Shown here piece by piece: positions 7,577-29,516 of a stretch of DNA of 64,000 nucleotides. The notes below the pieces were generated by a model that saw nothing but the letters and a program-made list of their open reading frames with translations, made no database searches and was not told the DNA's origin. Each line of letters opens with the position of its first letter. Positions within the stretch are counted from its first letter, which is position 1. The stretch covers positions 128,001 through 192,000 of the forward strand of contig CAVYNY010000020.1 of NCBI GenBank assembly GCA_963769935.1, in the 5' to 3' direction. Position numbers and translations under genes: made by a program. Source of the stretch: an uncultured delta proteobacterium. GTDB taxonomy: Bacteria; Desulfobacterota; Desulfobacteria; Desulfobacterales; JAFDCJ01.

Positions 7577-7898
7577 AGGATGCCTGCCTTGGCTAGGCGC
7601 TTAGACGTAAGGTCTTCGCATTTTCTGATAAAATATTTTCTCGCAAAGCCGCAGAGCTCGCAAAGGTAATTTATTAAGTTAAACTTGGCGTCTTTGCGCC
7701 TAGTTTGCGAGTCCGCCGAAGGCGGATCGATTCCGGTTCATCCGGGTTAGGGGACGGCAATTTGATTTTCACACGCGATTTCTATACAGCGGTGAAAGGG
7801 ATGTCAATCTGAAAAAGTAATTTTTGCAGCCTAGGGGCCAACACCGATGGACAAGCGGTCTGTTTCGCTCGTCTGTCGACGGGGGAATATTTTTTGCT

Positions 7899-8095
7899 TG
7901 ACAAGGTCGTTTTATAATTGTTAGTTACGCCCTCAAGCCGGGGCAGGAAGCCCCGGTGCGCCGTCAGCCGGTGAGTCAGATTGAAAACCGGAGCGACCTG
8001 CGGGTCTGAGGCGGTATTTCCATAAAATGTTAAACAAAGCCACGAAGGCGATTTTCCCAAAATGGGGAAAAAGCGGTCGTGGCTTTTTTATTTTT
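7899..8095 (+). promoter_or_regulatory. Promoter and structured 5' leader ending in a terminator-like hairpin (candidate riboswitch/attenuator) of the Ni/Co uptake operon
   Basis: TTGACA at 7899; several GC stems at 7929-8013; GCCACG...CGTGGC stem followed by a U-tract at 8039-8095. Confidence 0.55.
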
Positions 8096-8282: not shown

Positions 8283-9055
8283 ATGAAGTTTGGCAAAATG
8301 ACAGCCCTGATTGTTTTTTTAACCTTGATCGCGGCAGGTCCGGCCTGGTCGCATTTTGGGATGTTGATTCCCTCGGATTCAATGGTGATGCAGGACGACA
8401 ACCGGACGGTAACGGTCACCCTGTCTTTTTCCCACCCCTTCGAAATGGTGGGGATGGACTTGGTAAAACCTAAAGTTTTCAGCGTGCTGGCCGGCGGAAA
8501 GACCCAGAACCTGCTCGGTTCACTGGAAGCCACCCGGGTAATGGACCACACGGCCTGGCAGGCGGCATATCCGGTAAAGCGCCCCGGGGTGTATATGTTT
8601 TACATGGAGCCCGAACCATACTGGGAGCCGGCTGAGGATTCGTTTATCGTTCATTATACCAAGAGTGTCGTAGCGGCTTTTGGTGACGACGAAGGCTGGG
8701 ATGAGGAGATCGGGCTCAAGACCGAAATCGTTCCCTTGTCCAAACCCTTCGGCCTGTATGCCGGCAACGTTTTTCAGGGGATTGTGAAGCTGAACGGCAA
8801 ACCCGTACCATTTGCCGAGGTCGAAGTCGAATACTATAACAGGGACAAGAAGTATACGGCCCCGACCGAGTATATGATTACCCAAACCATCAAGTCCGAT
8901 GGCAACGGCGTGTTCACTTACGCGGCCCCGGTTTCCGGCTGGTGGGGTTTTGCGGCGCTTAAACGGAGCTGATTTCAAACTGCCGCATGAAGGAGAAGAA
9001 AAAGAATGTCGAACTGGGAGCGGTTATCTGGGTGTACTTTCATGAAATGAAATAG
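8283..9055 (+). CDS. DUF4198 / NikM-type periplasmic nickel/cobalt uptake protein; frameshifts near 8965 and 9005
   Basis: Signal peptide ending AWS followed by mature N-terminal His (HFGMLIP); [10 protein letters not shown]-terminus ELGAVIWV recovered in another frame. Confidence 0.85.
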
Positions 9056-9073: not shown

Positions 9074-10180
9074 ATGAAGAGACGACCGTGTTTAACCGCT
9101 GTCGGCGGAATTGCGGCCCTAATTTGCCTCTTATTTTTGAGCGGAACCGTATCAGCATATGATGTAACGGACAAGCTGTCCATCGGCGGTGTGATCGCCG
9201 GTGCCTACCAGCAGCAGTGGGTGGACGGCGACGACAATCTGGGCCGCGGCGCGCTGCCTTTCCAGCCCGAGTTCAGCTTCCGGCCCACTGAACAGGACGA
9301 GATTTTTGCCAACTTCGGTTTTGCCGCCGGCAACGGCTTAAACGGGGTGACCGGCTTCATCCTGGCCCCCTGGGCCGCGGACCTGGAAGACGATGTCAAG
9401 GACATCAACGGCCGCAACCGGGACTACCTGCTGACCGTCTGGTACAAGCACACCTTTGCCCTGGGAGAGAACAACGCCCTGGCCCTGACCGGCGGCATCA
9501 TCGATGCGACCGCCTACATCGATGAAAATACCTATGCCAACGATGAGTACACCCAGTTCATGAACGAGGCCCTGGTCAATGCCCCCAACGGCTTTGCCCC
9601 CTCCTATGATATCGGCGGGGCCGCGGAATGGGAGGTCGGCAGCTGGGATATCACCGCCCTGGGGATGAATGTGGGGGAAAACGAGGACGGCAACAACTAC
9701 AACTTTTTTGCCGGCCAGATCGGCTACAAGCTGAAAACCGCCCTGGGAGAAGGCAACTACCGGGTGATCGGCCAGATGACGAGCAAAGAGTTTGCCGACG
9801 AAAACGGTGGCAAGGAAAAGCGGGCGGGAGTCTTCATATCATTCGATCAGCAGCTGGGCGAGATCTTCGGGGCCTGGATTCGCTGCGGCTGGCAGGACGA
9901 CCAGGTCCTTATCGACTATGATGCGCTGTTTTCAGGCGGGCTGAACATTACCGGCAAGTGGTATGGCCGCGCGGCCGACAACATCGGTATCGGCTACGCC
10001 TGGCTGAACGGCAAAAACGATTTGGACTACACACAGGTCGCCGAGGTTTATTGGCGGGTTGTGCTCAATGACTATTTTGCCGTCACAGCGGACCTGCAGT
10101 ACATGCAGGACAAATACGACACCGGCAGCGATGATGTTGACGGGTTTATCGGCGGGCTGCGGATGACTGCCGAATTCTGA
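9074..10180 (+). CDS. Outer-membrane porin (OprB/carbohydrate-porin-like)
   Basis: Signal peptide, NDEYTQFMN motif, amphipathic beta strands, C-terminal Phe (MTAEF). Confidence 0.75.
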   Translation: MKRRPCLTAVGGIAALICLLFLSGTVSAYDVTDKLSIGGVIAGAYQQQWVDGDDNLGRGALPFQPEFSFRPTEQDEIFANFGFAAGNGLNGVTGFILAPWAADLEDDVKDINGRNRDYLLTVWYKHTFALGENNALALTGGIIDATAYIDENTYANDEYTQFMNEALVNAPNGFAPSYDIGGAAEWEVGSWDITALGMNVGENEDGNNYNFFAGQIGYKLKTALGEGNYRVIGQMTSKEFADENGGKEKRAGVFISFDQQLGEIFGAWIRCGWQDDQVLIDYDALFSGGLNITGKWYGRAADNIGIGYAWLNGKNDLDYTQVAEVYWRVVLNDYFAVTADLQYMQDKYDTGSDDVDGFIGGLRMTAEF

Positions 10181-10269: not shown

Positions 10270-10875
10270 ATGCACATTTCTGAAGGAGTTCTATCCGCTC
10301 CCGTGCTGCTTTCGGGCGCGGCCCTGGCTGCCGTAGGGACGGGGATCGGGTTGAAGAAACTGGACTATGATCAGATAGCCAAAGCCGGCATGCTTTCGGC
10401 TGCCTTTTTTGTGGCGTCGCTGGTCCATGTCCCCATCGGGCCGTCCAATGTCCACTTGATATTGAACGGACTGGTGGGTCTTCTCCTGGGCTGGGGGGCC
10501 TTTCCGGCCATCCTGGTCGCACTGGTATTGCAGGCCGTTTTTTTCCAGTTCGGAGGCATTACGACCTTAGGGGTAAATACCGTCGTTATGGCGCTGCCGG
10601 CGACCCTTTGTTATCTTATTTTCGGACGGTTTGTCCAAAAAAGCTCCCGGACGGCCGTCATCGCCGCCTTTGCCTGTGGATTTCTGTCGGTGTTGCTGAG
10701 CGGGTTGTTGGTCGCCTTCTCTCTGGTTTTTACGGATGAGAATTTCCTGGATGTATCCGGCATCATCCTTGCCGCCCATGTACCGGTTATGATTATTGAA
10801 GGTATTGTTACTGCCATTTGTGTGGCCTTTTTGCGCAAAGTAAAGCCGGAGATGCTGCTGACCGGGCCGGACTAA
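10270..10875 (+). CDS. cbiM: Cobalt/nickel ECF transporter substrate component CbiM/NikM
   Basis: N-terminal MHISEG, ASLVHVPIGP.NVHL, GGITTLGVN. Confidence 0.93.
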   Translation: MHISEGVLSAPVLLSGAALAAVGTGIGLKKLDYDQIAKAGMLSAAFFVASLVHVPIGPSNVHLILNGLVGLLLGWGAFPAILVALVLQAVFFQFGGITTLGVNTVVMALPATLCYLIFGRFVQKSSRTAVIAAFACGFLSVLLSGLLVAFSLVFTDENFLDVSGIILAAHVPVMIIEGIVTAICVAFLRKVKPEMLLTGPD

Positions 10876-10949
10876 GCAATGCTTGTTTTAATGTTGGAAA
10901 TAGAAAACAATTCCTGCAAAACGCCGAAAAACGGTTTAAGAGGCGAGGT

Positions 10950-11613
10950 ATGCGTATGAATAAATTCAGGGTAAAAATGGCTGTTGCGGTTGTGATGTTT
11001 TCATGCTTTGCGTTTTTGTCGGTACATTCTGCATTTGCCCACCGGGTCAGCGTCTTTGCCTGGGTGGAAGGCGACAAGATTTACCTGGAAAGCAAATTTG
11101 CCGGCGGCCGGCCGGTGAAATCCGGCAAGGTCGTTGTTACCGATCCCCAGGGTGCCGAGTTGCTGTCCGGCGTGACCAATGATGAGGGTGAATTTTCTTT
11201 CAAAATTCCCGAACGGACGGACTTAAAAATTGTGCTGATCGCCGGACAGGGGCATCAGGCCGAGTGGACCATCCACAAGGCCGAGATGGAGGATTTGCCG
11301 TCCGGGACGGCATCTGAAGGCCGGCGCTGAAAAGTCCGGAGCCGCCGGACAAAAGAAACGCTGTTACCAAAATATCTGTCGATAACGGAACCGGCCGCGC
11401 CAGGCGCTGTTATGAGTCCGAAAGAATTGGAAGCAGTCATCGAATCTGTTCTGGATCGAAAATTGAAACCCATCACGAAAGATGCTGGCCGATCTGCAGC
11501 AGGAGGGCCCCTCCATCAAAGACATATTTGCAGGCATCGGCTACATCTTCGGGCTTGTGGGCGTTGCGGCATATGTTCAAAGCCGTAAAAAGAGTCAGGA
11601 TTCCAGACATTGA
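10950..11613 (+). CDS. CbiL/NikL-like accessory component; frameshifts near 11320 and 11480
   Basis: Signal peptide then HRVSVFAWVEG; C-terminal TM DIFAGIGYIFGLVGVAAY read across frames; follows cbiM. Confidence 0.75.
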
Positions 11614-11640: not shown

Positions 11641-14600
11641 TCATTTGGCACCGGATCGGTTAAAGAAGTGGAAAAGCACCGGCATGACCAGCAGTACGAG
11701 GGGCATCTGCGCCACCAAGCCTGAAATAATGGCGATGGCCAGCGGCTGCAGCATCTCCGACCCCTGTCCCAGGCCCAAAGCCACGGGCAGCAGGGCCAGG
11801 ATGGCGGCGATCGTGGTCATGGCGATGGGCCGCAGACGGTTGATACCGGCCTGAATCAGAACATTGCTGTCCGGTTCCTTGAGGGTGAGCAAATTTCGAT
11901 ACTCGGAGAAGTAAAATATCGCCACTTCGGTGACGATGCCGACGACCATGGTCATACCCATCATGGCCGTTATGTTCAGCTCGACGTTCGTGGCCCACAG
12001 TCCGATGAACACCGCCGACATAGCCATCAAGGGCATGAGGATGATGGTAATTACGATCAGAAACCGTTCGTACAGGAACAACAGCAGCAGGAACACGAGC
12101 GACACCGCCGCGGCGAAGACCGTGATCAGTCCCCGAAAAGCGATTTGCTGCTGCTTGTAGAGCCCGCCCATCTCGTAGTAAATGCCTTTGGGAAGCAGAC
12201 CGCTTTTCTGCAACGCCTGCTCCACATCGTGAGCCGCCGGACCCATGCTGCGTCCGCTGATGCGGGCGGTCACCGCCACCATCCGTTTCAGGTTGTCGCG
12301 GGTGATCTGCGGTTGGCCGGTGACGGTTTCCACCGTGGCGATGCGGCCTAATGGAAACCGGTGGCCATCGGCGGCCGTCAGACTCAATGCGGCAATTTGG
12401 TCCTCTCGCATCCGCAGAGCTGCGGGCACCCATACCCGTATGCCGATCAGCTTGATGTTTTTTTGTACTTTGGTGGTGACGATCCCGCTCAGGTAGGCCT
12501 CCAACTGACTGGTCACGGCCTCCGGATCGATGCCCTCCAGCGCTCCCTTTGATCTGTCCACCTTGATTTCGAGGGAATCGCCGGCAATGACGATGCCGCT
12601 GCGCACGCTGACAATTCCCCGCACTTGCCCGATGGCGCGGGCTACCTTGGGAGCCGTGTCCAGCAATTGCTGAGTATTGTCGCCGAACAGCTTGATCTCG
12701 ATGGGCTGGGGAACGGCGGTCAAGTCGCCGATGAGATCTTCGATCAGTTGGGCCGTCTCGACTTCCAGTCCTGGAACCTGCTGCTCGATTTGCCCCCGGA
12801 CGGCGTCCATGACCGCCCAGACTGAGCGTCGCGGAGGCGGCTTGAGATCGATAAAGTAATCGCCTTGGTTGGCTTCGGTAATTCCCCCGCCGAGCTGGGT
12901 GCCGGTGCGCCGCGAATAGGTAGCAATCTCCGGAACGGTTTTCAGGATAGCGTCCACCTGCTCCAGCAGGCGATCGGTCTCGGCCAGCGAAGTTCCAGGC
13001 GGGGTCAGGTAGTCCAGCACGAATCCGCTCTCGTCCATCTTGGGAAGGAAGCCCGAGCCAACCCGGCTGTAGGCAAAGGTACCACCGATCAGCAGGGGCA
13101 AGACACCGGCCACCAGAAGCCAGGGGTGAGCCACAATGGTTTTCATCAAGCTCCTGTATCCGTGCTGAAAGGCATGCGTGATGCGGCCTTCATCTTCTCG
13201 AGCGGCATCTTTGCCGCCAAGTAGATGTTCGCACAACAGGGGAATGGCCAGCCAGGCCACCACGTAGGAAACCAGCAGTGCGCTGGCCATGGTCACTGAC
13301 AAGGCCTTGAAGAAGGCGCCGGTGACGCCGCTGAGAAACGCCAGCGGCAAAAAGATGATGATGGTAGACCCGGATGAACCGCTGAGCGGATGGACAAACT
13401 CGGTGGCAGCCTGGCGGATTATGTCAGAGTCAGAGCCGTGGCTCTGGCGTACACGCCGGATGATGTTTTCGAGCATGACGATAGCATCGTCGATGATCAG
13501 TCCCACTGCCGCTGCCATGCCGCCCAGGGTCATGATGTTGAAACTCATATTGAGCAGGTAGAGCACGAGCACAGCGGTTGCCAGCACCGCCGGCACCGTC
13601 AGAACGGCAATCAGGGTAATTTTGAGACTGCGCAGAAACAGCAGCAGCATCAGGGCTGCCAGACCGGCGCCGATGAGGACCGCATCACGCACGCTGCTGG
13701 CGGTTTCAGTCACCAGTCGGCTCTGATCATACCAGCTGTGGATCGAAATGCCGGGAGGCAGGCGGTCCTGAAATTGCTTCAACCGCGTCTTGATCTGCGC
13801 CACGATGTCGACGGTGTTGCCCCCCGGCTGCTGGTAGATCGACATCGATACCGCGTTTCGGCCGTCGGCCATTATGGTTTGCCAGTTCGGCACGCTGGAC
13901 AGCGCCACAGTGGCGATATCTTCCAGTCGCACCAAGCCGTTTTCATCGGTTCTGAGAACCGTGGCGCCAATCTGCGCCAGATCGTGGAAACGGGTGTCCG
14001 ACAGGAGCAGAAACAGTTTGTAATGATCCTGCAGTCGCCCGACGGCTTTGAGCACATTGGACGCCGATACGGCCTTGATGACATCCTCGATGGTGAGTCC
14101 ATAAGCCTGCAGCAGGGCCGGATCGGCAGAGACGCGGTACTCGGCCTCTTCGCCCCCCATGACCGGAACTCTGGCGACGCCGTCGATCGCCGACAGGAGC
14201 GGCGAAAGCTGATACTGGGCGATATCGCGCAGCTCAATCAGGCCGTGGGAGTCCGAGGTCAGGCTGTAGGCCGCGACCGGATAGACCGTTGCATCCATGC
14301 GGCGGGCGCTGAAAGAAGTCCCCGCCGGCAGGGATGAGAGCTGCTGGTTCACTACCGATTCAACCTGCAGCAACGCTACGACCATGTCATGTCCCCAGGA
14401 GAAGTCGATCGATATATCGGCGCTGCCGCGGCTGGTCGTGGAGCGGATGCTGTGCACGCCGGGAATGGCATGCAGCGCTTCTTCCACCGGGCGGGTGATC
14501 GTGAGAACCATTTGGCCGGCGGGGCGATCGCCGGCCTCCAGCATGACTTCGATGCGGGGAAAATCTACACGGGGAAACAGCGCCACCGGCAGTTTCAAGG

Positions 14601-14685
14601 CGCTCACCAGCCCCCCGAGGACCAACAACGCCAGTAGAAACAGAATCGAGCGGCGATGCCCGGCGACCCGGTCGGCAAAACTCAC
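11641..14685 (-). CDS. RND efflux permease (AcrB/CusA superfamily)
   Basis: 1014 aa, NIMTLGGMAAAVGLIIDDAIVMLENI, RLRPIAMTT, PLAIAIISGL. Confidence 0.95.
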   Translation of the reverse strand: MSFADRVAGHRRSILFLLALLVLGGLVSALKLPVALFPRVDFPRIEVMLEAGDRPAGQMVLTITRPVEEALHAIPGVHSIRSTTSRGSADISIDFSWGHDMVVALLQVESVVNQQLSSLPAGTSFSARRMDATVYPVAAYSLTSDSHGLIELRDIAQYQLSPLLSAIDGVARVPVMGGEEAEYRVSADPALLQAYGLTIEDVIKAVSASNVLKAVGRLQDHYKLFLLLSDTRFHDLAQIGATVLRTDENGLVRLEDIATVALSSVPNWQTIMADGRNAVSMSIYQQPGGNTVDIVAQIKTRLKQFQDRLPPGISIHSWYDQSRLVTETASSVRDAVLIGAGLAALMLLLFLRSLKITLIAVLTVPAVLATAVLVLYLLNMSFNIMTLGGMAAAVGLIIDDAIVMLENIIRRVRQSHGSDSDIIRQAATEFVHPLSGSSGSTIIIFLPLAFLSGVTGAFFKALSVTMASALLVSYVVAWLAIPLLCEHLLGGKDAAREDEGRITHAFQHGYRSLMKTIVAHPWLLVAGVLPLLIGGTFAYSRVGSGFLPKMDESGFVLDYLTPPGTSLAETDRLLEQVDAILKTVPEIATYSRRTGTQLGGGITEANQGDYFIDLKPPPRRSVWAVMDAVRGQIEQQVPGLEVETAQLIEDLIGDLTAVPQPIEIKLFGDNTQQLLDTAPKVARAIGQVRGIVSVRSGIVIAGDSLEIKVDRSKGALEGIDPEAVTSQLEAYLSGIVTTKVQKNIKLIGIRVWVPAALRMREDQIAALSLTAADGHRFPLGRIATVETVTGQPQITRDNLKRMVAVTARISGRSMGPAAHDVEQALQKSGLLPKGIYYEMGGLYKQQQIAFRGLITVFAAAVSLVFLLLLFLYERFLIVITIILMPLMAMSAVFIGLWATNVELNITAMMGMTMVVGIVTEVAIFYFSEYRNLLTLKEPDSNVLIQAGINRLRPIAMTTIAAILALLPVALGLGQGSEMLQPLAIAIISGLVAQMPLVLLVMPVLFHFFNRSGAK

Positions 14686-15728
14686 GGCTGCACCTCCTGC
14701 AGCGCCATGCCGTCTTTGAGCTCGTAGTTGCCCACGATGACCACGGCATCACCGGCCTTCAGCGGTCCTTCGACCGCCACCAGCCCTCTGTCCTCAAGCC
14801 CGGTCGTAACAGCCACTCGATGGGCTCGACCATTTTGAACGATGAACAGATACGCTCCCTGTGCATCCTTCAATACGGCACTGCGCGGCACGGCCAGGGT
14901 TTTTTCCTCGTTCAGGGTTATTGTCCCTTTGATCCGGTCGCCCAACACAAGTGGGGCCGACTTGGCTGCCGGCACCCGCGTCAGTACGTCCACCAGCCGC
15001 GTGCGCGGGTTAACCATGGCCAGCACTGTGCTGACCTGCACCTCGACTCGCCATTGCTGTTCGAACAGGGATTCCAGCACCACTTTCATCCCGGGTGCGA
15101 CGCGACGGGCGTCCTCCGGTTCCACGCCCAGTGGCACGAGCAGCGTGTCCTCGCTGGCCAGCAGCACGGCATCGGTGTCGGCCTGGACGCGCTGCCCCTG
15201 GCTTACCTTCAGCTCGATCACGATCCCCGCAAAAGGCGAGCGAATGATCGTCATGTTTTTCTCGTTGCCCAGCTTGAGCAGCGCAGCCAACTTGGCTTCG
15301 GCATCGCTGAGGTCGCGCTCTGCGGCCGCGACCTGATCGTGGGTTGCCAACTGCTGGGAAAACAGGCTTTGGGTTTGCTGCAGTTTGCTGCGCGCATAGT
15401 CAACTGCGGCTTTGGCCTGCTGGTAGTCCATGCGGGCCTGCGGGGCGGTGTCGAGTTCCAGGAGTTCCTGATTGGGGGTGACCCGCTGGCCGAGGCGGAC
15501 CAGCAGGCGGTTGATCGTACCGGCCCGCGGCAGTGAAATGCTGCTGATATGATCCGGGTCGGCTTGGACCTGCCCGTAAGCGACGACCGTCTTTTTCAGG
15601 ATGTGTTGCGCCAACGGCAGGGTTTGAACCTGGGCCTGAGGTTCGGCCAGGGCCGGGATCGTTGCCGGGTACACGGCGAGAAGGGCGGACAACAGATATA
15701 GCTTGGAATGACGGATAAAACAGTTCAT
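14682..15728 (-). CDS. RND periplasmic adaptor (membrane fusion protein)
   Basis: Lipoyl/coiled-coil pattern, IRSPFAGIV, VPRSAV; ATGA overlap with the upstream gene. Confidence 0.9.
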   Translation of the reverse strand: MNCFIRHSKLYLLSALLAVYPATIPALAEPQAQVQTLPLAQHILKKTVVAYGQVQADPDHISSISLPRAGTINRLLVRLGQRVTPNQELLELDTAPQARMDYQQAKAAVDYARSKLQQTQSLFSQQLATHDQVAAAERDLSDAEAKLAALLKLGNEKNMTIIRSPFAGIVIELKVSQGQRVQADTDAVLLASEDTLLVPLGVEPEDARRVAPGMKVVLESLFEQQWRVEVQVSTVLAMVNPRTRLVDVLTRVPAAKSAPLVLGDRIKGTITLNEEKTLAVPRSAVLKDAQGAYLFIVQNGRAHRVAVTTGLEDRGLVAVEGPLKAGDAVVIVGNYELKDGMALQEVQP

Positions 15729-17095
15729 GGTCGATACTTTCCAGGGGCCGGGGCGGAAGTCTCCGCGGGCCAGGCCAGCAGTGTATCCAATGCGATGCGG
15801 ATTTCCCACAGGGACTGCTCCAGGTCCACGGCTTCCAGGCGCTGGTTGAGAAGGGTATTGGCCATGTTGACATAAGCCAGCGAATCGATGTTGCCGGCCT
15901 CGTAGGCTCGGGTCGCCTTTGCAACCATCTGCTCCAGAATCGGCAGCTTTTGGTTGAGTGTGGAACGTTGCTGGGAAAGCAGCTCATACCGGGTCTGCAG
16001 CAGGTCGATCTGGGTCAGCGCCTGGTCCAAGCGCAGCTGATAGGCCTGCGCGAGCTGAGCCCGTGTTGCGCGCTGGATGGCGATCTGGCCCCGGTTGGCG
16101 TTCAAGACCGGCAGGTTCAACGTGATGCCGACACCGATGCTGGTTACATCGCCTGTATCCCGGCCCCAGTTGGGCCCGAGGCTTAAGGTGGGGAACTGGG
16201 CCAGTATCGCTCGGCGGACTTTTTCCTCCTGGCTGGCATATCCCGCCTGCAGCGCCAGCAGATCGGGCCGGCGCTTGGGTAGATCGGCCATGGCTGCCTG
16301 CAGGTTTGTCTGCTGAAGCGGTAGCGGCGCCGGCAGGAGTGTTAGATCAAGGGTTACATCGGGTTGCAGTCCCAGCAGGAGGTTGAAGTCGTGCCGAGTC
16401 TGATTCACCGTCAACGCCATCTGGCTCACCCTGGTGTTGGCGTCGAGCAGGGCGGTCAGGTCGGTGCCGGTCACATCCAGGGTAAGATTGCCCGCTTCGA
16501 GGGCCTGGGAGGAGCGGGCGTAGCGTTGTGCATAGAGCGTTTGTGCCTGGCGCAGCAAGGCCAGCTTGCGATCCTGCTGGACGCTCTGCACGAAGAGCGC
16601 GCGGGCCTGCTGGACGGTCAGCCACTCCTGCCAAAGGATATCCAGATCCACCTGCCGCGCGGCGGCGCTTGCCGCTTTGATGCCGGCGCCGCGGGTCACC
16701 AGGGTCATGACGTCGTAGCTCAAACCGATCCCATATGCATCGGTCAGAGGAGGCGGCCCCGAGGTGGGATGAGCGCCGCTCAGAGAGAGCTGGGGATCCG
16801 GCAACAGACGGGCATCGAACAACTGCGCTCCCGCAATCTCGGCTTCGAGACGGCGGGCCTTGAGTTCGGGGTTGTTGATGACCGCCAGGATGGCCACTTC
16901 AGTCATGTCGAGGCCGTCGTCCGGATTGAAAGGGTGCGAACGCAGCAATGGTAGGGGCAGTAGCCGGGGATCGACTTTCAGCCGTCGGACCCCTTTCGCC
17001 ATATCCGGCCCTTCGGGCAAAGGTTGTGGCTGATATGACGCGCAGCCAGTCAGCAGCACCGCTATAGCTATGATTATCACCCACACGGCTTTCAT
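15725..17095 (-). CDS. TolC-family outer membrane efflux lipoprotein
   Basis: Lipobox LLTGC, AVINNPEL, RRPDLLA motifs. Confidence 0.9.
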   Translation of the reverse strand: MKAVWVIIIAIAVLLTGCASYQPQPLPEGPDMAKGVRRLKVDPRLLPLPLLRSHPFNPDDGLDMTEVAILAVINNPELKARRLEAEIAGAQLFDARLLPDPQLSLSGAHPTSGPPPLTDAYGIGLSYDVMTLVTRGAGIKAASAAARQVDLDILWQEWLTVQQARALFVQSVQQDRKLALLRQAQTLYAQRYARSSQALEAGNLTLDVTGTDLTALLDANTRVSQMALTVNQTRHDFNLLLGLQPDVTLDLTLLPAPLPLQQTNLQAAMADLPKRRPDLLALQAGYASQEEKVRRAILAQFPTLSLGPNWGRDTGDVTSIGVGITLNLPVLNANRGQIAIQRATRAQLAQAYQLRLDQALTQIDLLQTRYELLSQQRSTLNQKLPILEQMVAKATRAYEAGNIDSLAYVNMANTLLNQRLEAVDLEQSLWEIRIALDTLLAWPAETSAPAPGKYRP

Positions 17096-17607
17096 GTGGT
17101 CCTTTTTCCCCCACGGGCTGACTCATGAGACTGGTTTACAAATTCGGCGTCCGACCGTGCCGATTATCATTCGACTCCAGGTGCGCCCAATACACTGGAC
17201 TGTTTATTTTCAGATGCGAAAATTTTCTCTCATTTATGAACTATGGTCGATAAAAAGTCAATTAAATGTGCCGAAAGCTCTCTAAACCCTATATTCTGAA
17301 GTATCCGCCGTTGTCACACCGAGGTGTGACTGTGGCAAGGTTGGCTGGGGTGTTGAAATAATACAGTATTCAAAAAGCCTTCAGACCTATCGCGATCAGG
17401 CCAGTACGGCAGTATCCATAGCCACCGGCGCACACTGTATTGGTTATCAAAATAGCAGGCCATTATGAAGAAAGCATGAACCCGCCGATGATTTCCCGCC
17501 TAGACAAAACAGGAAAATGAGGCAGAGTATATAGAGCTGGTTGGGAAGTCCCTTAGCTGTAATTTATTTCTTGACAAAAATAGGCTCACTGTTTTACTGA
17601 AATATAT

Positions 17608-17772
17608 AAGGTGCGTAAGCTTAATAGGGAATCCCGTTAGAATCGGGAACGGTCCCGCCGCTGTAACCCTGCTTCATTAATTGAAGAAAACCAGTTCGGC
17701 CCCGTGCGCCACTGTATCGTTTTAACGGAATGGGAAGGCCGCCGGACGGGCGGGGGAGTCAGAAGACCTGCC
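17608..17772 (+). ncRNA. Cobalamin (B12) riboswitch
   Basis: AAGGTG...AATAGGGAATCCCG..GAATCGGGAACGGTCCCGCCGCTGT, GCCACTG...TGGGAAGGC, B12 box GAGTCAGAAGACCTGCC; TTGACA at 17571; upstream of cbiK. Confidence 0.95.
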
Positions 17773-17845
17773 TTGCCAATACGCTATTGCTCTGCGGGCA
17801 ACAGAGCGTGTTGTGATATGAAAAGGGTTAAGAAAACTGGGTGCA

Positions 17846-17881
17846 GCCCTTCAGGCGTGAACGCTTGAAGGGTTTTTTTTT
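17846..17881 (+). terminator. Intrinsic terminator (riboswitch expression platform)
   Basis: GCCCTTCAGGCGT-GA-ACGCTTGAAGGGT hairpin followed by a long T run. Confidence 0.85.
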
Positions 17882-18089
17882 GCAATTTATCTTATTCGAC
17901 CTCTATGTGAGATCTTCCACAAAAAAGGAGGTGAGCTCAGGTCGTATGAAATAGAAACCGACACCAAGGGGATAGACGTTGACGGGATCCCCGGAAGTAT
18001 TCGGCTTACCAGGGAAGTGTGACATTTTTCCAACTTATTGGAGAACATCTATTTGAAGGTCAAAGGCAACTGCAAAGGAGAGTCTTCGA

Positions 18090-19683: not shown

Positions 19684-20232
19684 CTAACGGTCAATTCCCA
19701 GGTCCCTGTGGATTTGAAGCATCCATTCGGGAACCGTAGGATTGTCAACGCCCAAGTAGGACTTGGAATAAGGCTTGATATCGATAATAGGGCTGCCGTC
19801 CAGGGCCTCCAATCCCTTTACTTTAATAACATTTCCGGTCCGTTCAAGCAAGGGCACCGCCGACACCAGAATCGGATTGGGCCGTGCCGGACTGCAGGTG
19901 GCGAATATGCCTTGCAAGGGCAAATCTTTACGGCCCATGGGATGGACTTTCCGCAAGTTCCGCCGTTTCGGGTCGATCAGATGGGGCCAATAAAGCACCA
20001 GGATATGGGAAAAACCGTCGATGCCGTCGAGCAGCTCCGCCCATTGGGGAAAGATGAACAGCTCGCATATGCTGTTTTCGACCCGTCTGTGATATTCGCG
20101 AATTTTTTCCAGGCGCTCCTGCAGTTCAATATCCGATTCGCCGGCGAGCAGCATGGGGGTTTTGATTTCGCTGCGCACCTCTCCGACCGGAGTGAGCTGC
20201 ATCGACAATAGATGGTTTTGGTTAACGTTCAT
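19684..20232 (-). CDS. tsaA: TsaA/TrmO-like SAM-binding methyltransferase family protein
   Basis: GIFATCSPARPNPI, GLEALDGSPIIDIKPY. Confidence 0.85.
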   Translation of the reverse strand: MNVNQNHLLSMQLTPVGEVRSEIKTPMLLAGESDIELQERLEKIREYHRRVENSICELFIFPQWAELLDGIDGFSHILVLYWPHLIDPKRRNLRKVHPMGRKDLPLQGIFATCSPARPNPILVSAVPLLERTGNVIKVKGLEALDGSPIIDIKPYSKSYLGVDNPTVPEWMLQIHRDLGIDR

Positions 20233-20403
20233 TGGATATTTCTCCTAAATCCATGGAAACGCGGGACTGCCTTCCCGAGGGTCAATAAGTTTTTTTATCC
20301 TTTGAGATTACAGATTTTCATATCGTTTCATCACTTACAGTTCATGATCCGCCCGTCGGTTCCAGGGCGGCTGGCGAACTCGCCTTGGAGGGACACCAAT
20401 GGG

Positions 20404-21485
20404 CTACCGGTTCCAGACCGCAGCATAAGGATCGCCGCCGGCTACCTTGTCGGCCAGCTTCGCCTTTCCCTCGAAAGACTTGAGTTCGACGATATAGGCA
20501 AGAATCTTATCCCTGGGGAGGCGGGCCAGCTCCCGGGACATTTTCACCCTGGCAACCCAGAACATCGGGTTCGCAGGTCCGCCTTTGGGCGTCAATTCAT
20601 CGGGCTTCATCCCGGTGTCCTGAAAAGCCTTGTTCCAGTCAAATCCCAGCACCCTGCCGTCGCACGAGTCCGATTTATTGTTTGTGCGCATGGCAACGAG
20701 CGGGGGTTGAACCCCGGCTTTGGCATATTTTTCCAGTAGGCTGCCGTCAATCGCCATGGCGTATCCCGAGGATTTTCCCGCCGTGGCGTTGAACATCATC
20801 TGAAGGGCGTCGGCCACACATTTGCCCGGTGCTGTTACAAAAACATATTTTTCGCCGGACCCCAGGGGGAGATTGTCCATAAGATATTCCCCGGCAATGA
20901 AACCGGAGTTGACCCCCGGGCAGAAATGGTCATGAAAAGCCGCCGCCTGCAGCAAGGCCCAGGGCGGCTCCACGGCCCAGGTGAGACTGATGCTGACCAC
21001 AGAAAAGATCCTCGCGCCGATGATGCCGCCGGCGGCATCCTTCCATCCCTCGGGGTCCAGGATTCCGGCAGGAGATGCATCGACTATTTGCTGCTCAAAC
21101 CCCTTTCCGGTCCACTTGAAAAAGATCAGCTTGCCTGTATCCTTCCGGTAAAGGGAGCACCAAAGTGGTTCCTGAATCCCCGTGTGCACGGCAAGCAGGG
21201 AACGGCTCCCCATGTGGCAGCCTGTTGCCGCAGAAGCGGTGTTCAGAAAAGCCTCCGTGCTCTGGTTGTCGACCGTTCCATAGCCGGCATTGGTCAGCAG
21301 CAGGAGATTGGCATCAGACTTGGATACGTACATTTCGGACATGGCACGGCCGAGAGCTTCTTTGGCCGGATCCAGCCAGGTGGCTCGTTGGCAGCCCAAG
21401 GCGAGGCAGTCAACATGAATGCGGCAACCAAGAGAATAACGACCAACAAATAGATCGTCATCATAAGCGGCTTCATGCCTGCCAT
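20404..21485 (-). CDS. FmdE family protein, large probably exported form; frameshift near the N-terminus (~21400)
   Basis: LTNAGY, FHDHFCPGVNSG, CVADALQ; hydrophobic signal in an adjacent frame (YLLVVILLVAAFMLTASPWA). Confidence 0.8.
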
Positions 21486-21536
21486 TCACTTCAGATCTGC
21501 AAACTTTAATTCTATCTCATTTCAGCTGGAGATGAG

Positions 21537-22151
21537 CTACCGTTTTTCTCTGGCTTCAAAACACGGGATGCATAAAAGCTGCCCGCCGAAATGGCGGGTC
21601 CGCGTCTCCATGACAGTCTCGCCGCACGCTTCACACACCAGGGAAGCCAATATCCGGGCTTTTTGGGGGACATGGTCAAGCGGTGTTTTGACCTCAAAGA
21701 GTTCCGTCAGCTCGGATTTCATGATGTGTTTGGAGAGGGCGTGCCGGGTTGCGTGCCAGAGACTATCCTCTTCTGCGGTCAGCCCTTCCGCCAGCATTTT
21801 TTTGTGAAGTCGACCCAGGGTAGCGCCGGCATCCCCGTAAATATCCGGCCAGGCGACCAGGCGGGCGGCCTTGCCGTCCTGTCTGTGGTAAAAGCTGAAG
21901 GCGTTTTTCCCATAGTCTTTGTGAATCAGGTTGCCCTTGCCAAAGGTGCAGCCCGTCAGGTACTGAATGGCATCCACGCCGCACATGTCGGTTTCCACAA
22001 CAGCCACGATCTCCTCATCCGGCGCTTTGCCCATCTCCTTTAAGGCCCATTCGGCGGCCCGGATGCCTATGGCCAAGCCGGGACACCAGTGGCCATGGAA
22101 ACTGGTCGTTTGTTTAATCAGTTCTTCGGTTACTATTTTGTCACTCATCAT
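21537..22151 (-). CDS. FmdE family protein with C-terminal zinc finger
   Basis: FHGHWCPGLAIG, ETDMCGVDAIQ..TGCTFGKGNL, CEACGE...LCIPC; RBS AAGGAGG. Confidence 0.9.
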   Translation of the reverse strand: MMSDKIVTEELIKQTTSFHGHWCPGLAIGIRAAEWALKEMGKAPDEEIVAVVETDMCGVDAIQYLTGCTFGKGNLIHKDYGKNAFSFYHRQDGKAARLVAWPDIYGDAGATLGRLHKKMLAEGLTAEEDSLWHATRHALSKHIMKSELTELFEVKTPLDHVPQKARILASLVCEACGETVMETRTRHFGGQLLCIPCFEAREKR

Positions 22152-22229
22152 TTCCTCCTTTAATAGATATCGATGTCCATCTCTGCCGGGTGCCAAATAC
22201 CGGAGAGATTTCATTTCCAAGGTGGCCAA

Positions 22230-24176
22230 GTTAGCTTGTATTTGCGGTCGGAAGCACCTCACCAGGTGTTGACCACCATTCGGATTTACTTCCGGCGGTG
22301 TTTCGGAAAAACATGCGAAACGCCATACCTGCATCGCGAAGAAAACGGGCACCCGGCCTGAGGGGGGTCCTTCGCCTGCAAAAGAAGGCCGTTGGCTCTC
22401 CCTGAGGCGCTCCGAATCAGAAGCCTTGTATAGGGGTGAAGCGGTTGGCGCAGCACCTGCACAGACGGCCCGATCTCGACGATGGTACCGGCTACCATTA
22501 CGCCTATGCGGTCTCCTATCTTGCGGGCCAATCCGATGTCATGGGTCACGAAGAGCATGGTGAGCCCCTTCTCGATCTGTAGATCCAGAAGGAGCTTGAG
22601 GACCTTGGCCTGAACGCTCGGGTCCAGGGAACTGGTCGGCTCATCGGCCACCAGCAAGGAGGGCTCCAATACCAGCGCACGGGCGATGCAGAGCCGCTGA
22701 ACGGCCCCCATGTTGAGCTCATGGGGATATCGTTTAAGAAACGCCGGTTCCGTGGAAAGCCGCACATCAGCCAGGACACTTTTAACGCGATCCTGAATTT
22801 CTTCCTTTCCCCGGATCGATCCCTGAATTCTTAGAGGCTCCGCCACGATATCGAAAACGGATAGGCGGTGGCTGACCGCTTCCGCGGGGTTTTGATAGAT
22901 CACCCCGATCCTTCTTGCCAGGGTTCGATAGCTGCGGTTCCTCCATTCGTCCATATCGCTGCCGTCGAAGACCCGGCTCCCCTGGTCAGGATCGAGCACC
23001 CCGGCCGCGATCATGGCCAGCGTGGTCTTACCTGACCCGGTTTCACCAACCAGGCAAAACACTTCTCCCGCTCGCAGGTTCAGATTTGTATGGCACAGGG
23101 CCGTAACCTTATTATAGCGCTTGCGCACTCCCTTCAATTCGATTCGACTTGCAATACCGCCGCGCAGGCAGCGAACACGGTGATCTTTTACGCTCAGCAT
23201 GGTCAAGTCCTTGCCTAAACAATCTTCAACGGCTTGTGTGCACCGGGGCTGGAAAAGGCATCCACAGGCGATGCATGGCTGTCTTCATGAATAGATCCGG
23301 CGCCGATTATGTGGCTGTGAGATTCAGCCCTATCGTTTTCTTGGGAATGTCTGTGGCTGACCCGGTAAAAGGCATCCCCGCGGATACCGCCGAGATCGCG
23401 CAGCGTATCCATGCCCGGATAGGACCGGCCCAGGGCCAGGGTGTAAGGATGGCACGGGTTCAGGAGAAGGTCTCGCCGCCGGCATGGTCTCCATGATCTG
23501 ACCCAGGTAAAGCACCGCCAGGTCGTCAGCCAGCTTATCGGCCAAATCGAGGTCATGGGTTACCAGCAGAACGGAGGCGCCCTTTTTTGACACATCCTGG
23601 ATTACATGGGCCACGAATGACTTGGTCATGGCGTCCAGGGCCGAGGTCGGCTCGTCGAGAATCAGTACTGCCGGGTCCATGATCAGGGCCATGGCCAGGA
23701 GCGCCCGCTGGATCTCGCCGCCGCTCAATTCATGGGGGAAACGACGTCCCTGTTCCGGCTGCAGTCCCATCCGCGCAAGAACGTTCATCGGCCCGATCAT
23801 TCGCCGCTTGCTTCTCACTTCGTCCGTGGTGAATCAAAGGTTCAGCCACCTGGTCGATAATACGGTGGGCAGGATTGAGGTTGGCCGCCCCGTTCTGAAA
23901 GACCATGGCCACTCGCGACCATCGGATCTCGTTGAAGCCCGCTTCGTCCAGGCCGATGAGTTCGGTTTCATTGAGCTTCACGCTGCCCGAGATTTCCGCA
24001 TTGTCCGGTAAAAGTCCCATGAGCGTCTTGGCCAGGGTGGTCTTGCCCGATCCGGATTCACCCACCAAAGCCGTAATCCGTCCGGGCTCCAAGGTGAGAG
24101 CGACCTGGTCCAGAGCCTGCAAGGCATAATCCCCGTCCCGGTAGATCACGGATAATTCTTCAATGCTTAGTTTCAA
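22230..24176 (-). CDS. Peptide/nickel-type ABC ATPase with two NBDs; several frameshifts; 3' end approximate
   Basis: [29 protein letters not shown]; second domain GETGSGKT, ADEPTSSLD; C-terminal GCPF..RC. Confidence 0.8.
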
Positions 24177-25012
24177 AGCGCCTCCTTCAGCCTCGGATCG
24201 AACACCTTTTCCAGGCCGATGGCCAGGAAGGTGACGGTCATGATCAACAGGGTCAGAAGAAAAACCGGCGGCAGGAGCCAGTTCCACCAGATATCCAGGT
24301 AATAGTATTTAAGGGCATAGCTGATCATGATCCCCAGGGATTTGCGGCTCGGGTCGAACAATCCCAGAAAGGCCAGCGAGGCCTCCATGAAAATGGCCAT
24401 CCGGGCCTTGGTGGCAAAGCCGATGATATAAAGCGGAAATAATTCCGGCAGCAGGTGTTTGACGACAATATACGAACCTGATCCTCCCATCTGTTTGGCC
24501 GCGTGTATGTGAAGACGGGTCTTTACCTCCAGAGCCTGGGCTCGGATTCCCTTGGCGGTGGTAGGCCACAGCATGATCGATAGAATCAAGGCCAGCGTCA
24601 TGGGTGCAGGCCGGAACACGGCTGCGGTCATAATCAGGATCATCACGGCGGGGACGGCCAACAGGATATCGGCCAAGCGCATGAAGACCTGGTCCGCCAG
24701 ACCTCCGAACCAGGCAGCTGCCAGCCCGACGGCTACGCCGAGGATAAGGGCCGCAAAGCCGGCCAGAAGGCCGAACTCCATGGTATTGCGCATCCCGACG
24801 AGGAGTTCGGAGAAGATGTCCATGCCGCCGTCATTGACGCCAAGCCAATGCTCGGCGGAAGGCGCGCTCAGCGGCCGGAAGGACATGTCATGGGCATCAT
24901 AAGGCGTCAAAGGCGGCCCCAGTAAGACTAAAAGGATTAAAACCGAGGCGAGAACCATGCCGATTATAAACCAGGGATCTTGGCCTAATTTATGGCGAAT
25001 GTTAATATGCAT
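24173..25012 (-). CDS. Peptide/nickel ABC permease (OppC/NikC-like)
   Basis: PSAEHWLGVNDGGMDIFS, EASLAFLGL. Confidence 0.88.
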   Translation of the reverse strand: MHINIRHKLGQDPWFIIGMVLASVLILLVLLGPPLTPYDAHDMSFRPLSAPSAEHWLGVNDGGMDIFSELLVGMRNTMEFGLLAGFAALILGVAVGLAAAWFGGLADQVFMRLADILLAVPAVMILIMTAAVFRPAPMTLALILSIMLWPTTAKGIRAQALEVKTRLHIHAAKQMGGSGSYIVVKHLLPELFPLYIIGFATKARMAIFMEASLAFLGLFDPSRKSLGIMISYALKYYYLDIWWNWLLPPVFLLTLLIMTVTFLAIGLEKVFDPRLKEAL

Positions 25013-25967
25013 AATCCACCCGTGGATCAATCCACCCGTAGACATACTCAAGGGCCAGGTTGATAAAAAGCACCAGGAGGGATGAAAAGAGGACGATCCC
25101 CTGGATCAACGGAAGATCACGCACTGCAATGGCGTTGAACAGCAGTGTGCCCAGTCCGGGGTAGGAGTAAATGTTTTCCACGACCAGTGCCCCGGTGACC
25201 ATGAAGGCGATGCGCAGCCCGAAACGGGTGATCATGGGCAGGAGGGCGTTGCGGGCAGCGTGTGCGTATCGCACCCGGACAGGTGGCAGGCCTTTTGCCC
25301 GGGCGGTTTGCACGAACTGCGCCCTAAGCACCATGACCATGCTTGCCCGTGTGAGCAGGAAATTGCCCGGAAAATAGGCCAGGACAAGGGTGGAAAGGGG
25401 CAAGACGAGATGACGTGTTACGTCCCGGACCTGCCCCAAGGGGGAGTACATGGCATAGGCGGTCTCAGCGCCGGACGGGGGGAACCATCCCAGGTAAAGG
25501 GCAAAGACCAGCAGCAGCGCCACGCCGGTGCCAATTTCAGGCATCCCCTCCAGCACGGTCATGCATCCGACGCCGGCTTTCTCCAAATAACCACCTCGAC
25601 GCCAGGCCGCCTCCACCCCGGCCATAAATCCGAAGAACATGGAAATCACGTGCGCGCTGCCCAGCAGCAACAGGGTCCATGGGAGGGCTCCCAGGATCAG
25701 ATCCGAGACCGGGGTCAAAAAAGCATAGGAATACCCCCAGTTCAGGGTCAGCAGGTTCACCAGAAACCGGCTGAAACCCTCTCCGTGACTATAGTAAGCC
25801 CTGATCTGTTCCTCCTGATCCGCGCTCAGGGTTACGTGCGAGCTTGCATACATGGCCGTTACGAAATCTCCCGGCAGCAGCCGCGGCAGAATGTAGCTGG
25901 CATAGATCATGACCAGGCCGGCCAGCAGGTAGGCCGGTACAAGTCTTATGTGATGACCTTTTCTCAT
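25002..25967 (-). CDS. Peptide/nickel ABC permease (OppB/NikB-like)
   Basis: PRLLPGD, TARAKGL, HAARNALLP, YPGLG, DPRV. Confidence 0.9.
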   Translation of the reverse strand: MRKGHHIRLVPAYLLAGLVMIYASYILPRLLPGDFVTAMYASSHVTLSADQEEQIRAYYSHGEGFSRFLVNLLTLNWGYSYAFLTPVSDLILGALPWTLLLLGSAHVISMFFGFMAGVEAAWRRGGYLEKAGVGCMTVLEGMPEIGTGVALLLVFALYLGWFPPSGAETAYAMYSPLGQVRDVTRHLVLPLSTLVLAYFPGNFLLTRASMVMVLRAQFVQTARAKGLPPVRVRYAHAARNALLPMITRFGLRIAFMVTGALVVENIYSYPGLGTLLFNAIAVRDLPLIQGIVLFSSLLVLFINLALEYVYGWIDPRVDYAY

Positions 25968-25968
25968 A

Positions 25969-27558
25969 TCACTTGATAAGGGACATCTTGTTCTGGGGGA
26001 TTGGGATGCCCTTGCTGATGCCTCCCTTCGTGTAATACCAGCGTATGCCTTTGCCGGGATTATAGGCGGCCATGGAATCCGGATAATAGAGCGAAATTGC
26101 CGGCAAATCCTCCGCGTAGATTTCCTGAATCTTGAAAACGATCGCCTTGCGCTTCTCCGGGTCCATTTCGCGCATCTGATCTTCCATCAATCTGTTGAGC
26201 TCCGGGTCGGCATCGTAGCGGGCGCTGTTGACCGAGCCGGCTCCGTATTGCGAGGAGATCATTTCGTTCAACATCCTGGGATCGCCGCACAGGCCGCCGT
26301 GTCCGGATACGGCCAGGTCGAATTGCCACTTTTTTACCCTGCTGTCTGTTGTTGCCTGTTCCAGGTTCACCAGGTCCACCTGGATGCCGATCGCCGCCAG
26401 TTGTTTCTTAATAACCTCCCCGTCCCGGTCGGCCACTCTCTCACCGGCTGCCGTGATATTTGAAGACAGCAACTCAATTTTAAGCGGACGGCCGTCCCGA
26501 ACAAAATAACCATCCGGCCCCTGGCGGTATCCTACGGACTCGATGAGTCGGCAGGCCTTCGCCGGGTCATACGGATACGTCGGTGTCTTGGGATTGTACA
26601 TCGCGTGATCAATGCTGAGCAGGCCGTAAGAAGCCGGAGCGGCAAATCCGCGGTGGGATTTGGCGATGATCTCTTGCCGGTTAATGGCATAGGCCAGGGC
26701 CGTGCGCAGGCGTTGGTCGTTGAAAGGGGGCTGGCGGTGGTTGATCATCAGCTTTTTGTTCCAGCCCCGCTCATCCTGGATGATGGCCATGCCCTGCCGC
26801 TTGAGAGGTTCGGCCATATCGGGTTTTATATTGGCCAGGTCGACTTCTCCGGTTGCCAGGGAAACCAGTGGCTTTCCAGAACGGACGTAGATGAGGCGAT
26901 CTGCCTTGGGCCGGCCCTGGTAATACTCCGTAAAGGCCTCGTACAGATAGGTTCCCTTGGCCTTGTCGAAGTCCCGGAAGACATAGGGCCCGCTGCCGAT
27001 GAATGCTTTCGGGCCGTTGTATTTTTCGGGATTTTCCACGGCCTTCCAAATGTGTTTGGGAAGGATGGGCATGGTCCCGCCGATATCTGACAGAAAGGGG
27101 GAGTAAGGCCGGGAGAGGTAAATGCTGACCGTCCATCGATCTTCAGCTTCGGCACGGTCGAGGTCCTTTACGGTTATCCAGGCATAGGGATGCCTTTTAA
27201 AATATTTGATGGTGAAGACCACGTCATCGGGCGTAAGGGGCTCACCGTCGTGCCACGTGGCTTTGGGGTTCAGCTTGAATGTAAAAGCCATCTTTGCCGG
27301 ATCATAAGACCATGACTCGGCCAAGGCAGGGATATAACCGTTCTGATCCTTCCAGATCAGGGTATCAAAAACCCAGCTCATTCGAATATAGCCCGGGCCG
27401 CGCGGGTAGTGGCGGTGGGGATTGGGGTAGCCCCAGTCGCCCCGACTGTCGGCGATGCGGATTTCCCGTGTTTGAGAAGCTGCGGCAGCTCCAATACCGC
27501 AAAAAAATAGCCCGGCAATAAAAAATGCGCACCCGAGTTTGGCCACTGATTGCTTCAT
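25969..27558 (-). CDS. ABC substrate-binding protein family 5 (NikA/OppA-like)
   Basis: Signal peptide; PALAESW, WHDGEPLTPDDVVFT, GSGPY. Confidence 0.9.
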   Translation of the reverse strand: MKQSVAKLGCAFFIAGLFFCGIGAAAASQTREIRIADSRGDWGYPNPHRHYPRGPGYIRMSWVFDTLIWKDQNGYIPALAESWSYDPAKMAFTFKLNPKATWHDGEPLTPDDVVFTIKYFKRHPYAWITVKDLDRAEAEDRWTVSIYLSRPYSPFLSDIGGTMPILPKHIWKAVENPEKYNGPKAFIGSGPYVFRDFDKAKGTYLYEAFTEYYQGRPKADRLIYVRSGKPLVSLATGEVDLANIKPDMAEPLKRQGMAIIQDERGWNKKLMINHRQPPFNDQRLRTALAYAINRQEIIAKSHRGFAAPASYGLLSIDHAMYNPKTPTYPYDPAKACRLIESVGYRQGPDGYFVRDGRPLKIELLSSNITAAGERVADRDGEVIKKQLAAIGIQVDLVNLEQATTDSRVKKWQFDLAVSGHGGLCGDPRMLNEMISSQYGAGSVNSARYDADPELNRLMEDQMREMDPEKRKAIVFKIQEIYAEDLPAISLYYPDSMAAYNPGKGIRWYYTKGGISKGIPIPQNKMSLIK

Positions 27559-27575
27559 TACGCCCTGCCTTTGCA

Positions 27576-27713
27576 AAACAAAAAAGCCACGGAAGTGCTC
27601 CCCTTCATGGGGGGATTGCCTTCGTGGCTCCTGTTTGTTGAAAATTTTCAGTATTACAGGGCTGCGTACCCTGAGTATCTATCTCTTTAAATCCAAACGC
27701 TTTGCTATGTCAA
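27576..27713 (-). promoter_or_regulatory. Promoter and leader with GCCACG...CGTGGC terminator-like motif upstream of the ABC/FmdE operon
   Basis: TTGACA on the minus strand at 27713-27708; GAGCCACGAAGGCAATCCCCCCATGAAGGGGAGCACTTCCGTGGCTTTTTGTTTT. Confidence 0.55.
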
Positions 27714-29325: not shown

Positions 29326-29373
29326 TTTTAATCCTCCTGTTTCAGATATCGTTGATTGGTTGAATGGCTATCG

Positions 29374-29515
29374 CCGGTTAGCCAGTGTGCCCGTTTGCCA
29401 GTTAGCCGGTATGCTGGTCCGTTAAATTTGGCCAACAGGTAAACAGGTCAACGGGCTAACGGGTCAACCGGCCAACCGCGCTAGCGGACCGGCACAAGGG
29501 CAAACGGACTAGCCC
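29374..29515. repeat. Inverted array of degenerate 8-mers
   Basis: ccggttag/cccgtttg units followed by aacaggtc/aacgggct/aaccggcc units. Confidence 0.75.
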
Positions 29516-29516
29516 T

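Follow-up and report, generated by a model that had tools for sequence, protein, structure and literature searches.

A family of terminator leaders with GAA-loop hairpins upstream of metal-uptake genes, and DUF3842 as its candidate regulator

Sequence comparison confirmed that a leader found before two metal-uptake operons of an uncultured member of the Desulfobacterales belongs to a real, widespread and so far uncatalogued family of attenuators, and it pointed to a specific candidate regulator, the protein family DUF3842. The leader is a terminator with a competing hairpin in its 5' arm, and we propose that DUF3842-dependent antitermination would let nickel-uptake genes be transcribed under nickel shortage. 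The probability that we attach to this reading is about 0.55.

The window (the whole stretch of 64,000 nucleotides that was analysed) contains two copies of the leader, and both were present as written in a preliminary description of this DNA. A TTGACA upstream and a metal-type importer downstream were also seen at both copies, although the promoter reported there comes down to a -35 hexamer at copy 1, where a sigma-70 promoter scan gave no fully spaced site and no canonical -10. The terminator-like stem with its U-tract was found in both copies as well, and the terminator hairpins fold at about -28 kcal/mol each. Two elements had been missed, namely, a hairpin upstream of each terminator (H1) and an alternative hairpin within the terminator 5' arm (H2). 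The coordinates are given in Table 1. Two further copies lie in the same genome (C20:289746 and C19:126206), making four in total. Their targets are DUF3842-cooT and cbiQ/cbiO, the latter encoding the ECF transporter half that the copy 1 operon lacks.

Table 1. Leader elements and downstream genes at the two copies in the window
Feature	Position	Strand	Basis
Putative -35 hexamer TTGACA, copy 1	7898..7903	+	Read in sequence
H1 of copy 1: upstream hairpin, AGGAA loop, C-G closing pair	7938..7956	+	
H2 of copy 1: GCC[ACGAA]GGC mini-hairpin, also terminator 5' arm; predicted antiterminator	8039..8049	+	
Intrinsic terminator of copy 1: outer stem (8039-8083), apical hairpin (8052-8071, loop without GAA) and U-tract (six T, 8084-8089)	8039..8089	+	
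DUF4198, first gene behind copy 1; nikK by operon position	8283..8972	+	Pfam
OprB-family porin, copy 1 operon	9074..10180	+	Pfam
CbiM/NikM ECF substrate component, copy 1 operon	10270..10875	+	
nikL-like ORF	10818..11330	+	Named by operon order and visual likeness
Remaining copy 2 operon: two permeases, ABC ATPases, two FmdE, TrmO_N protein	19684..25967	-	
SBP_bac_5 solute-binding protein, first gene behind copy 2; likely ATG 27558	25969..27576	-	
Intrinsic terminator of copy 2: stem 27628-27586, U-tract 27585-27580	27580..27628	-	
H3 of copy 2: apical hairpin, AUGAA loop	27599..27615	-	
H2 of copy 2: GCC[ACGAA]GGC mini-hairpin and terminator 5' arm	27618..27628	-	
H1 of copy 2: upstream hairpin, variant loop ACGCA	27657..27673	-	
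Putative -35 hexamer TTGACA, copy 2	27708..27713	-	Read in sequence

The naming of nikK by operon position follows the nikKMLQO arrangement given in the accessible text of Rodionov and colleagues (PMC545781). For the SBP_bac_5 protein behind copy 2, the best NCBIfam match was NikA, below the cut-off. The reading frame of the nikL-like gene (window 10818-11610, +) seems to shift near 11330; several other window genes also look frameshifted, which suggests assembly errors. One of them is cbiK, which consists of two overlapping ORFs (18203-18664 and 18661-18972; probably a frameshift) and has a cobalamin riboswitch upstream (window 17592-18972, +). An RND efflux system (AcrB, HlyD, and OEP; window 11641-17095, -) lies between the nik operon and this riboswitch. 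TusA/DsrE and AIRS-family genes, the latter presumably SelD-like, were found upstream of copy 2 (window 28726-30464, -), and similar genes stand upstream of a leader-DUF3842-cooT unit at two loci (L004 and L110).

Base pairing was examined in the aligned copies. The terminator stem covaries (first pair GC in 37, AU in 9, and GU in 9), and its score was reached by 0 of 500 shuffles. The 5' arm can fold alternatively as RCC[AYGAA]GGY, which is H2, and the two folds are mutually exclusive. The closing pair of H2 also covaries (GC 27, GU 19, AU 8, other 1; again 0/500 shuffles), so that covariation was found in both structures. Across 237 distinct leaders, this pair was GC in 132, GU in 69, and AU in 31, with 5 mismatches; the A-U pairs came mostly from nikK leaders that are related and from ECF leaders of Clostridia and therefore represent few independent events. 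Where the search pattern permits both, U-G occurred 18 times and C-A twice among 159 copies, and C-A fell to 0/151 once 8 rows were removed (four reverse readings of palindromic copies and four chance or repeat matches). The presence of U-G and the absence of C-A indicate a single-stranded, sense-strand RNA. With a GC-rich stem, a U-tract following it, and covariation, the element has the features of an intrinsic terminator. The conserved bases had been taken in the preliminary description for an internal loop of that terminator, an assignment that did not hold: their 3' partners vary and often pair (141 to 165 of 188 at positions 7 to 10), and the conserved AAGGC is the closing part of the small competing hairpin, its bases forming the loop and 3' arm of H2.

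The same short loop recurs elsewhere in the leader. Under strict criteria, 75 of 158 leaders had an H1 with an (A)NGAA loop (mean of shuffles, 1.9); under wider criteria, 131 of 237 did (mean of shuffles, 8.6; maximum, 14; downstream control, 18). H1 sits a median of 45 nt upstream of H2, across a variable spacer that is 69% AU. A hairpin at the terminator apex (H3) carried such a loop in 71 of the 237 leaders (shuffle, 3.4), and apical loops containing GAA were present in 70/151 leaders versus 13/99 ordinary terminators of this genome. The loops counted were AGAA, UGAA, AAGAA, AUGAA, and ACGAA, closed by C-G. Both H1 and H3 were missing from 70 of the 237 leaders, which counts against the proposed mechanism. 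Forcing H2 to form cost 6 to 13 kcal/mol in this genome's four copies, and the median for 232 leaders was 13 kcal/mol. Since H2 is about 13 kcal/mol weaker than the terminator, read-through would probably need a stabilizing ligand. A leader peptide starting at the ATG variant was rejected, as 108 of 159 copies have ACG. In variant nikK leaders (L184, L187, and L203), H1 and an AUGAA/AUGGA apical loop are kept and H2 is lost; the one in G043, a genome with NikR and without DUF3842, is possibly a transition state.

The spread of the leader was examined with a two-arm search pattern (GCCAYGAAGGY-N12-42-YRTGGCTTT), with the reversed pattern as the control. Matches were found in 142 of 301 genomes of the order, and the control matched in 2 places; the leader motif is above chance. 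A scan of GTDB genomes gave at least 122 matching stretches, and the phyla among the matches listed were Desulfobacterota, Bacillota, Nitrospirota, NC10, and Acidobacteriota. Cultured carriers include Sporomusa ovata and Terrisporobacter petrolearius. According to a covariance model built from 55 copies, mostly pattern-selected, the leader was present in 113/150 genomes of the order (E up to 0.01), 47/141 of the phylum, and 16/149 of the Clostridia (one more genome was unscored). To avoid circularity, 30 loci were chosen because their first gene is an ortholog of the DUF4198 gene behind copy 1. With a relaxed pattern, 18 of these 30, our own copy included, carried the leader, with new variants in which the first G-C pair had become A-U, and several more had decayed forms, judged by eye. 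The family is therefore not an artifact of pattern selection.

The downstream genes were then tabulated. By Pfam, 64 of 110 first ORFs (31 + 79, manual tally, with the chance or REP-like loci L006, L049, L050, and L112 kept in) encoded metal-type import proteins, a strong bias toward metal importers. The families counted were CbiM/Q/O, DUF4198, Peripla_BP_2/FecCD, SBP_bac_5 and permeases, TonB receptors, TonB/ExbB, porins, and ECF S. Another 16 of the 110 had no Pfam match, and several of these were later identified as porins. FmdE, methyltransferases, DUF3842, and ChlI-type ATPases were recurring neighbors. Many targets are not specific to nickel, such as TonB receptors, FecCD, ChlI/D chelatase, methyltransferases, and the clostridial ECF S and kinase genes. 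In Clostridia (L252-L270), the first gene behind the leader often encodes an unassigned ECF S component, and the next one a uridine-kinase-like P-loop protein or a methyltransferase; this ECF S component may take up a metal cofactor. Tandem leaders before one gene or operon were seen at four loci (L059, L269, L276, and L305).

No known riboswitch class could be assigned, as the preliminary description had also concluded: the covariance models of Rfam 15 did not match the leader. At the gathering score, the cobalamin riboswitch elsewhere in the window was detected and nothing at the leader copies; for 8 related loci searched at E up to 5, nothing credible was found, the best overlap reaching 23.8 bits (E, 2.7) where the cut-off is 80. 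Literature searches, which covered journals outside subscription, gave no description of the leader. Term searches turned up no such motif in the main texts of Weinberg 2017 and Brewer 2021, in the accessible part of Narunsky 2024, or in the supplements of Stav 2019; the supplements of the first three may list it as a protein-binding or terminator candidate. The lack of an Rfam match, the target bias, and the covariation together support the earlier suggestion of an uncharacterized attenuator of metal importers. Of the two options offered for it, the protein-binding antiterminator site is more plausible than a metabolite aptamer, because one short loop recurs on interchangeable stems and the leader is found together with one protein family.

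That family is DUF3842, the one small non-transport family recurring beside leaders (10 loci). It was present in 136 of 142 pattern-positive genomes versus 110 of 159 others. By the covariance model, the figures were 104/113 versus 15/37 in the order, 45/47 versus 13/94 in the phylum Desulfobacterota, and 16/16 versus 38/133 in the Clostridia; all these counts span related genomes, and Fisher values overstate their significance. Among the first 30 families listed, DUF3842 was found in 11/11 that bear the leader, and it was also found in 5/5 additional leader-bearing genomes chosen from other lineages. Of the nine leader genomes of the order without DUF3842, six are less than 80% complete. Five genomes that have the target and neither the leader nor DUF3842 also lack CooT. 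Exceptions were found on both sides. A leader or model match without detected DUF3842 occurred in G503, G572, G041, G043, G047, and G267 (90 to 95% complete), and in G503, a true leader and cooT are kept while DUF3842 has gone from the syntenic place; such genomes count against DUF3842 as the reader of the loops. Conversely, no leader was detected in 38 of the 54 Clostridia with DUF3842 or in one closed genome with it (G465). Within the order, DUF3842 is usually found in a conserved, leaderless yacP-DUF3842-cooT-ispH cluster (L156-L175). In this genome, a yacP-cooT-ispH cluster without DUF3842 (C22:449031) was found, and the leader-controlled copy of DUF3842 alone is left.

The predicted structure of DUF3842 (pLDDT, 96) is a stand-alone Rossmann-like domain whose best matches are dehydrogenase and flavoprotein domains. 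Residues D8, E57, E85, K47, and K101 and a glycine-rich loop are invariant, the median net charge is 0, and few basic residues are conserved. In a wide structural search with a weaker model, the top match was an alcohol dehydrogenase (Z, 9.1; rmsd, 2.6; 93 aligned), and no RNA-binding family was among the matches, which does not exclude one. A solved relative was sought by sequence and none was found, and a search of the ESM Atlas returned DUF3842 clusters only. A Rossmann fold without a known RNA-binding match counts against DUF3842 as the reader.

Other candidate readers were compared. DUF3842 adjoins cooT in Desulfobacterota, and in some Clostridia it adjoins cooT together with a gene for a His-rich helical protein, which we take to be CooJ-like. 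CooT here matches PDB 6FAN; CooT binds one Ni per dimer via Cys2, according to the accessible text of PMC6006190. It is acidic (median charge, -5) and was rejected as the sole reader: it is absent from 13 of the 16 leader-bearing Clostridia, so that it cannot be universal. Structure prediction for a possible complex of DUF3842 with CooT scored 0.05 against a mark of 0.32. DtxR/FeoA was set aside as the regulator, with one copy in the genome, beside a leader at one locus only, as was the single NusG paralogue of this genome, whose context is unrelated. A search for ANTAR (PF03861) gave no match in this genome, nor in the control genomes.

Next, the likely signal was considered. NikR (PF08753) was not found in this genome (96.7% complete) in a search whose controls gave matches, and no site of the NikR operator type (GTGTTAC-N13/14-GTAACAC, up to 2 mismatches) was found on contigs C19 and C20. 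In the order, NikR was present in 3 of 150 genomes, all three without DUF3842; in the phylum, it was present in 4 of 47 leader genomes versus 62 of 94 leaderless ones. In a closed genome without the leader, DUF3842, and CooT (G027), nikR stands directly before the orthologous nikK, with a NikR-type palindrome upstream of nikR. The nikKMLQO genes were predicted to be controlled by NikR in other delta-proteobacteria, as stated in the accessible text of Rodionov and colleagues (PMC545781). This prediction, the near-exclusion of NikR and the leader, and the replacement in G027 make nickel the most likely signal; cobalt or a metal cofactor is less probable.

A mechanism can be proposed on this basis. 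The nascent RNA would fold H1 soon after the start, and H2 would emerge about 45 nt later. When nickel is limited, oligomeric DUF3842 would bind the loop of H1 and then those of H2 and, where present, H3. Bound H2 would keep the terminator 5' arm away, and the polymerase would pass the U-tract into the uptake genes. Nickel, sensed directly or via CooT or the His-rich partners, would end the binding, and transcription would stop at the U-tract. CooT would be an optional partner of DUF3842, and the leader before DUF3842-cooT would provide feedback. We put forward more tentatively, and at slightly less than even odds, the wider proposition that in anaerobes of several phyla an undescribed two-part system has taken the place of NikR in the control of nickel uptake. 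Its parts would be a GAA-loop multi-hairpin attenuator and DUF3842, a predicted stand-alone Rossmann protein that would be a new kind of RNA-binding antiterminator, linked to two CODH nickel chaperones, CooT and the CooJ-like protein.

The same attenuator may be read by another protein, either an unrecognized factor or, in some lineages, CooT, with DUF3842 being a co-inherited sensor or a nickel-handling enzyme of the regulon. This is unlikely. It would accommodate the Rossmann-like fold and neutral charge of DUF3842 and the leader with cooT and without DUF3842 in G503, and the candidates compared were DUF3842, CooT, NikR, ANTAR, NusG, and DtxR rather than whole proteomes. However, DUF3842 follows the leader and not the target, CooT is acidic and found in only 3/16 leader-bearing Clostridia, and the sole NusG paralogue here does not lie in a related context. 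A protein-free riboswitch, in which the GAA loops dock with one another, with a metal ion, or with a metal cofactor and so select between terminator and antiterminator, appears improbable. Its position and expression platform would be typical of riboswitches, a few leaders occur without DUF3842, and metal riboswitches of the NiCo type exist as a precedent; yet a conserved multi-helix core is absent, the spacer between H1 and H2 is variable and AU-rich, the stems are free to vary while only 4 to 5 nt of loop are kept, and the dependence on one protein family is tight.

A protein-dependent attenuator might also respond not to free nickel but to cobalt, to a metal-tetrapyrrole, or to a nucleotide cofactor that the Rossmann domain binds. 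DUF3842 has an invariant glycine-rich loop, TonB receptors, BtuF/FecCD-like systems, ChlI/D chelatase, and methyltransferases are among the targets, and the families used do not separate CbiM from NikM. We consider this more doubtful still in view of the near-exclusion of NikR and the leader, the presence of nikR in place of the leader in G027, the linkage to CooT, and the cobalt chelatase gene cbiK, which in the window is under its own cobalamin riboswitch. Finally, readings without any RNA switch, namely, a REP-like dispersed repeat, a simple terminator, or a DNA operator, are already largely refuted and hardly tenable. REP-like repeats with CCACGAAG do match the search pattern in these genomes (G146, L006), but the leader has one to a few copies per genome, lies in sense orientation in 5' leaders, and shows a target bias; it has G-U but no A-C pairs, a variable arm spacing, and a second covarying structure. 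In the present genome, there are four copies in 8 Mb, all in leaders, unlike a REP or MITE. REP-like intergenic repeats of CCACGAAG-type units that resemble the leader 5' arm were seen at L006 (G146), L173, L177, and C9:169576 of this genome, and they might be related to its origin.

The proposed DUF3842-dependent leader resembles several known systems in part. ANTAR-regulated leaders (EutV in Enterococcus faecalis) have dual hairpins with hexaloops bearing A at position 1 and G at position 4, as given in the accessible text of PMC8934654. Like our leader, they carry two or more small hairpins that present one loop sequence, and the hairpin nearer the terminator overlaps the terminator 5' arm; in both systems, several operons, including that of the regulator, have the leader. 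In contrast, the loops here are (A)NGAA of 4 to 5 nt and not A1/G4 hexaloops, the spacer is long, the terminator apex often bears the loop a third time, and the targets are metal importers. Without the hexaloops, the leader is not an ANTAR target, although it is ANTAR-like in its working. CsrA/RsmA proteins recognize GGA in hairpin loops and act by ribosome occlusion. Their target hairpins likewise repeat a short purine loop on interchangeable stems, but the constant part is GGA there and GAA here, and the output of the leader is termination rather than ribosome occlusion; GGA-containing loops were found in 5/75 upstream hairpins. Like the NiCo (czcD), cobalamin, and Moco riboswitches, the leader is a metal- or cofactor-linked 5' leader with a terminator platform; unlike them, it has no covariance-model match and no multi-helix aptamer. 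The NiCo riboswitch controls efflux, not import. With the NikR regulon of delta-proteobacteria, as described in the accessible text of PMC545781, it shares the nikKMLQO target and probably the signal; NikR represses at a DNA palindrome, whereas control by the leader is predicted at RNA termination, in genomes mostly without NikR.

If the proposal is true, it would describe a transition-metal sensor acting by protein-directed antitermination. Nickel enzymes are essential to sulfate reducers, syntrophs, and acetogens. NikR was not found in 147 of the 150 Desulfobacterales genomes sampled, and the leader offers a concrete, testable answer to how their nickel import is controlled. It would give DUF3842 a first function and CooT a possible regulatory role. 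As a marker, the leader suggests a link to nickel or a metal cofactor for many proteins without annotation, among them porins, TonB receptors, FmdE, methyltransferases, and ECF components, and it may be of use as a metal-responsive switch for engineering anaerobes.
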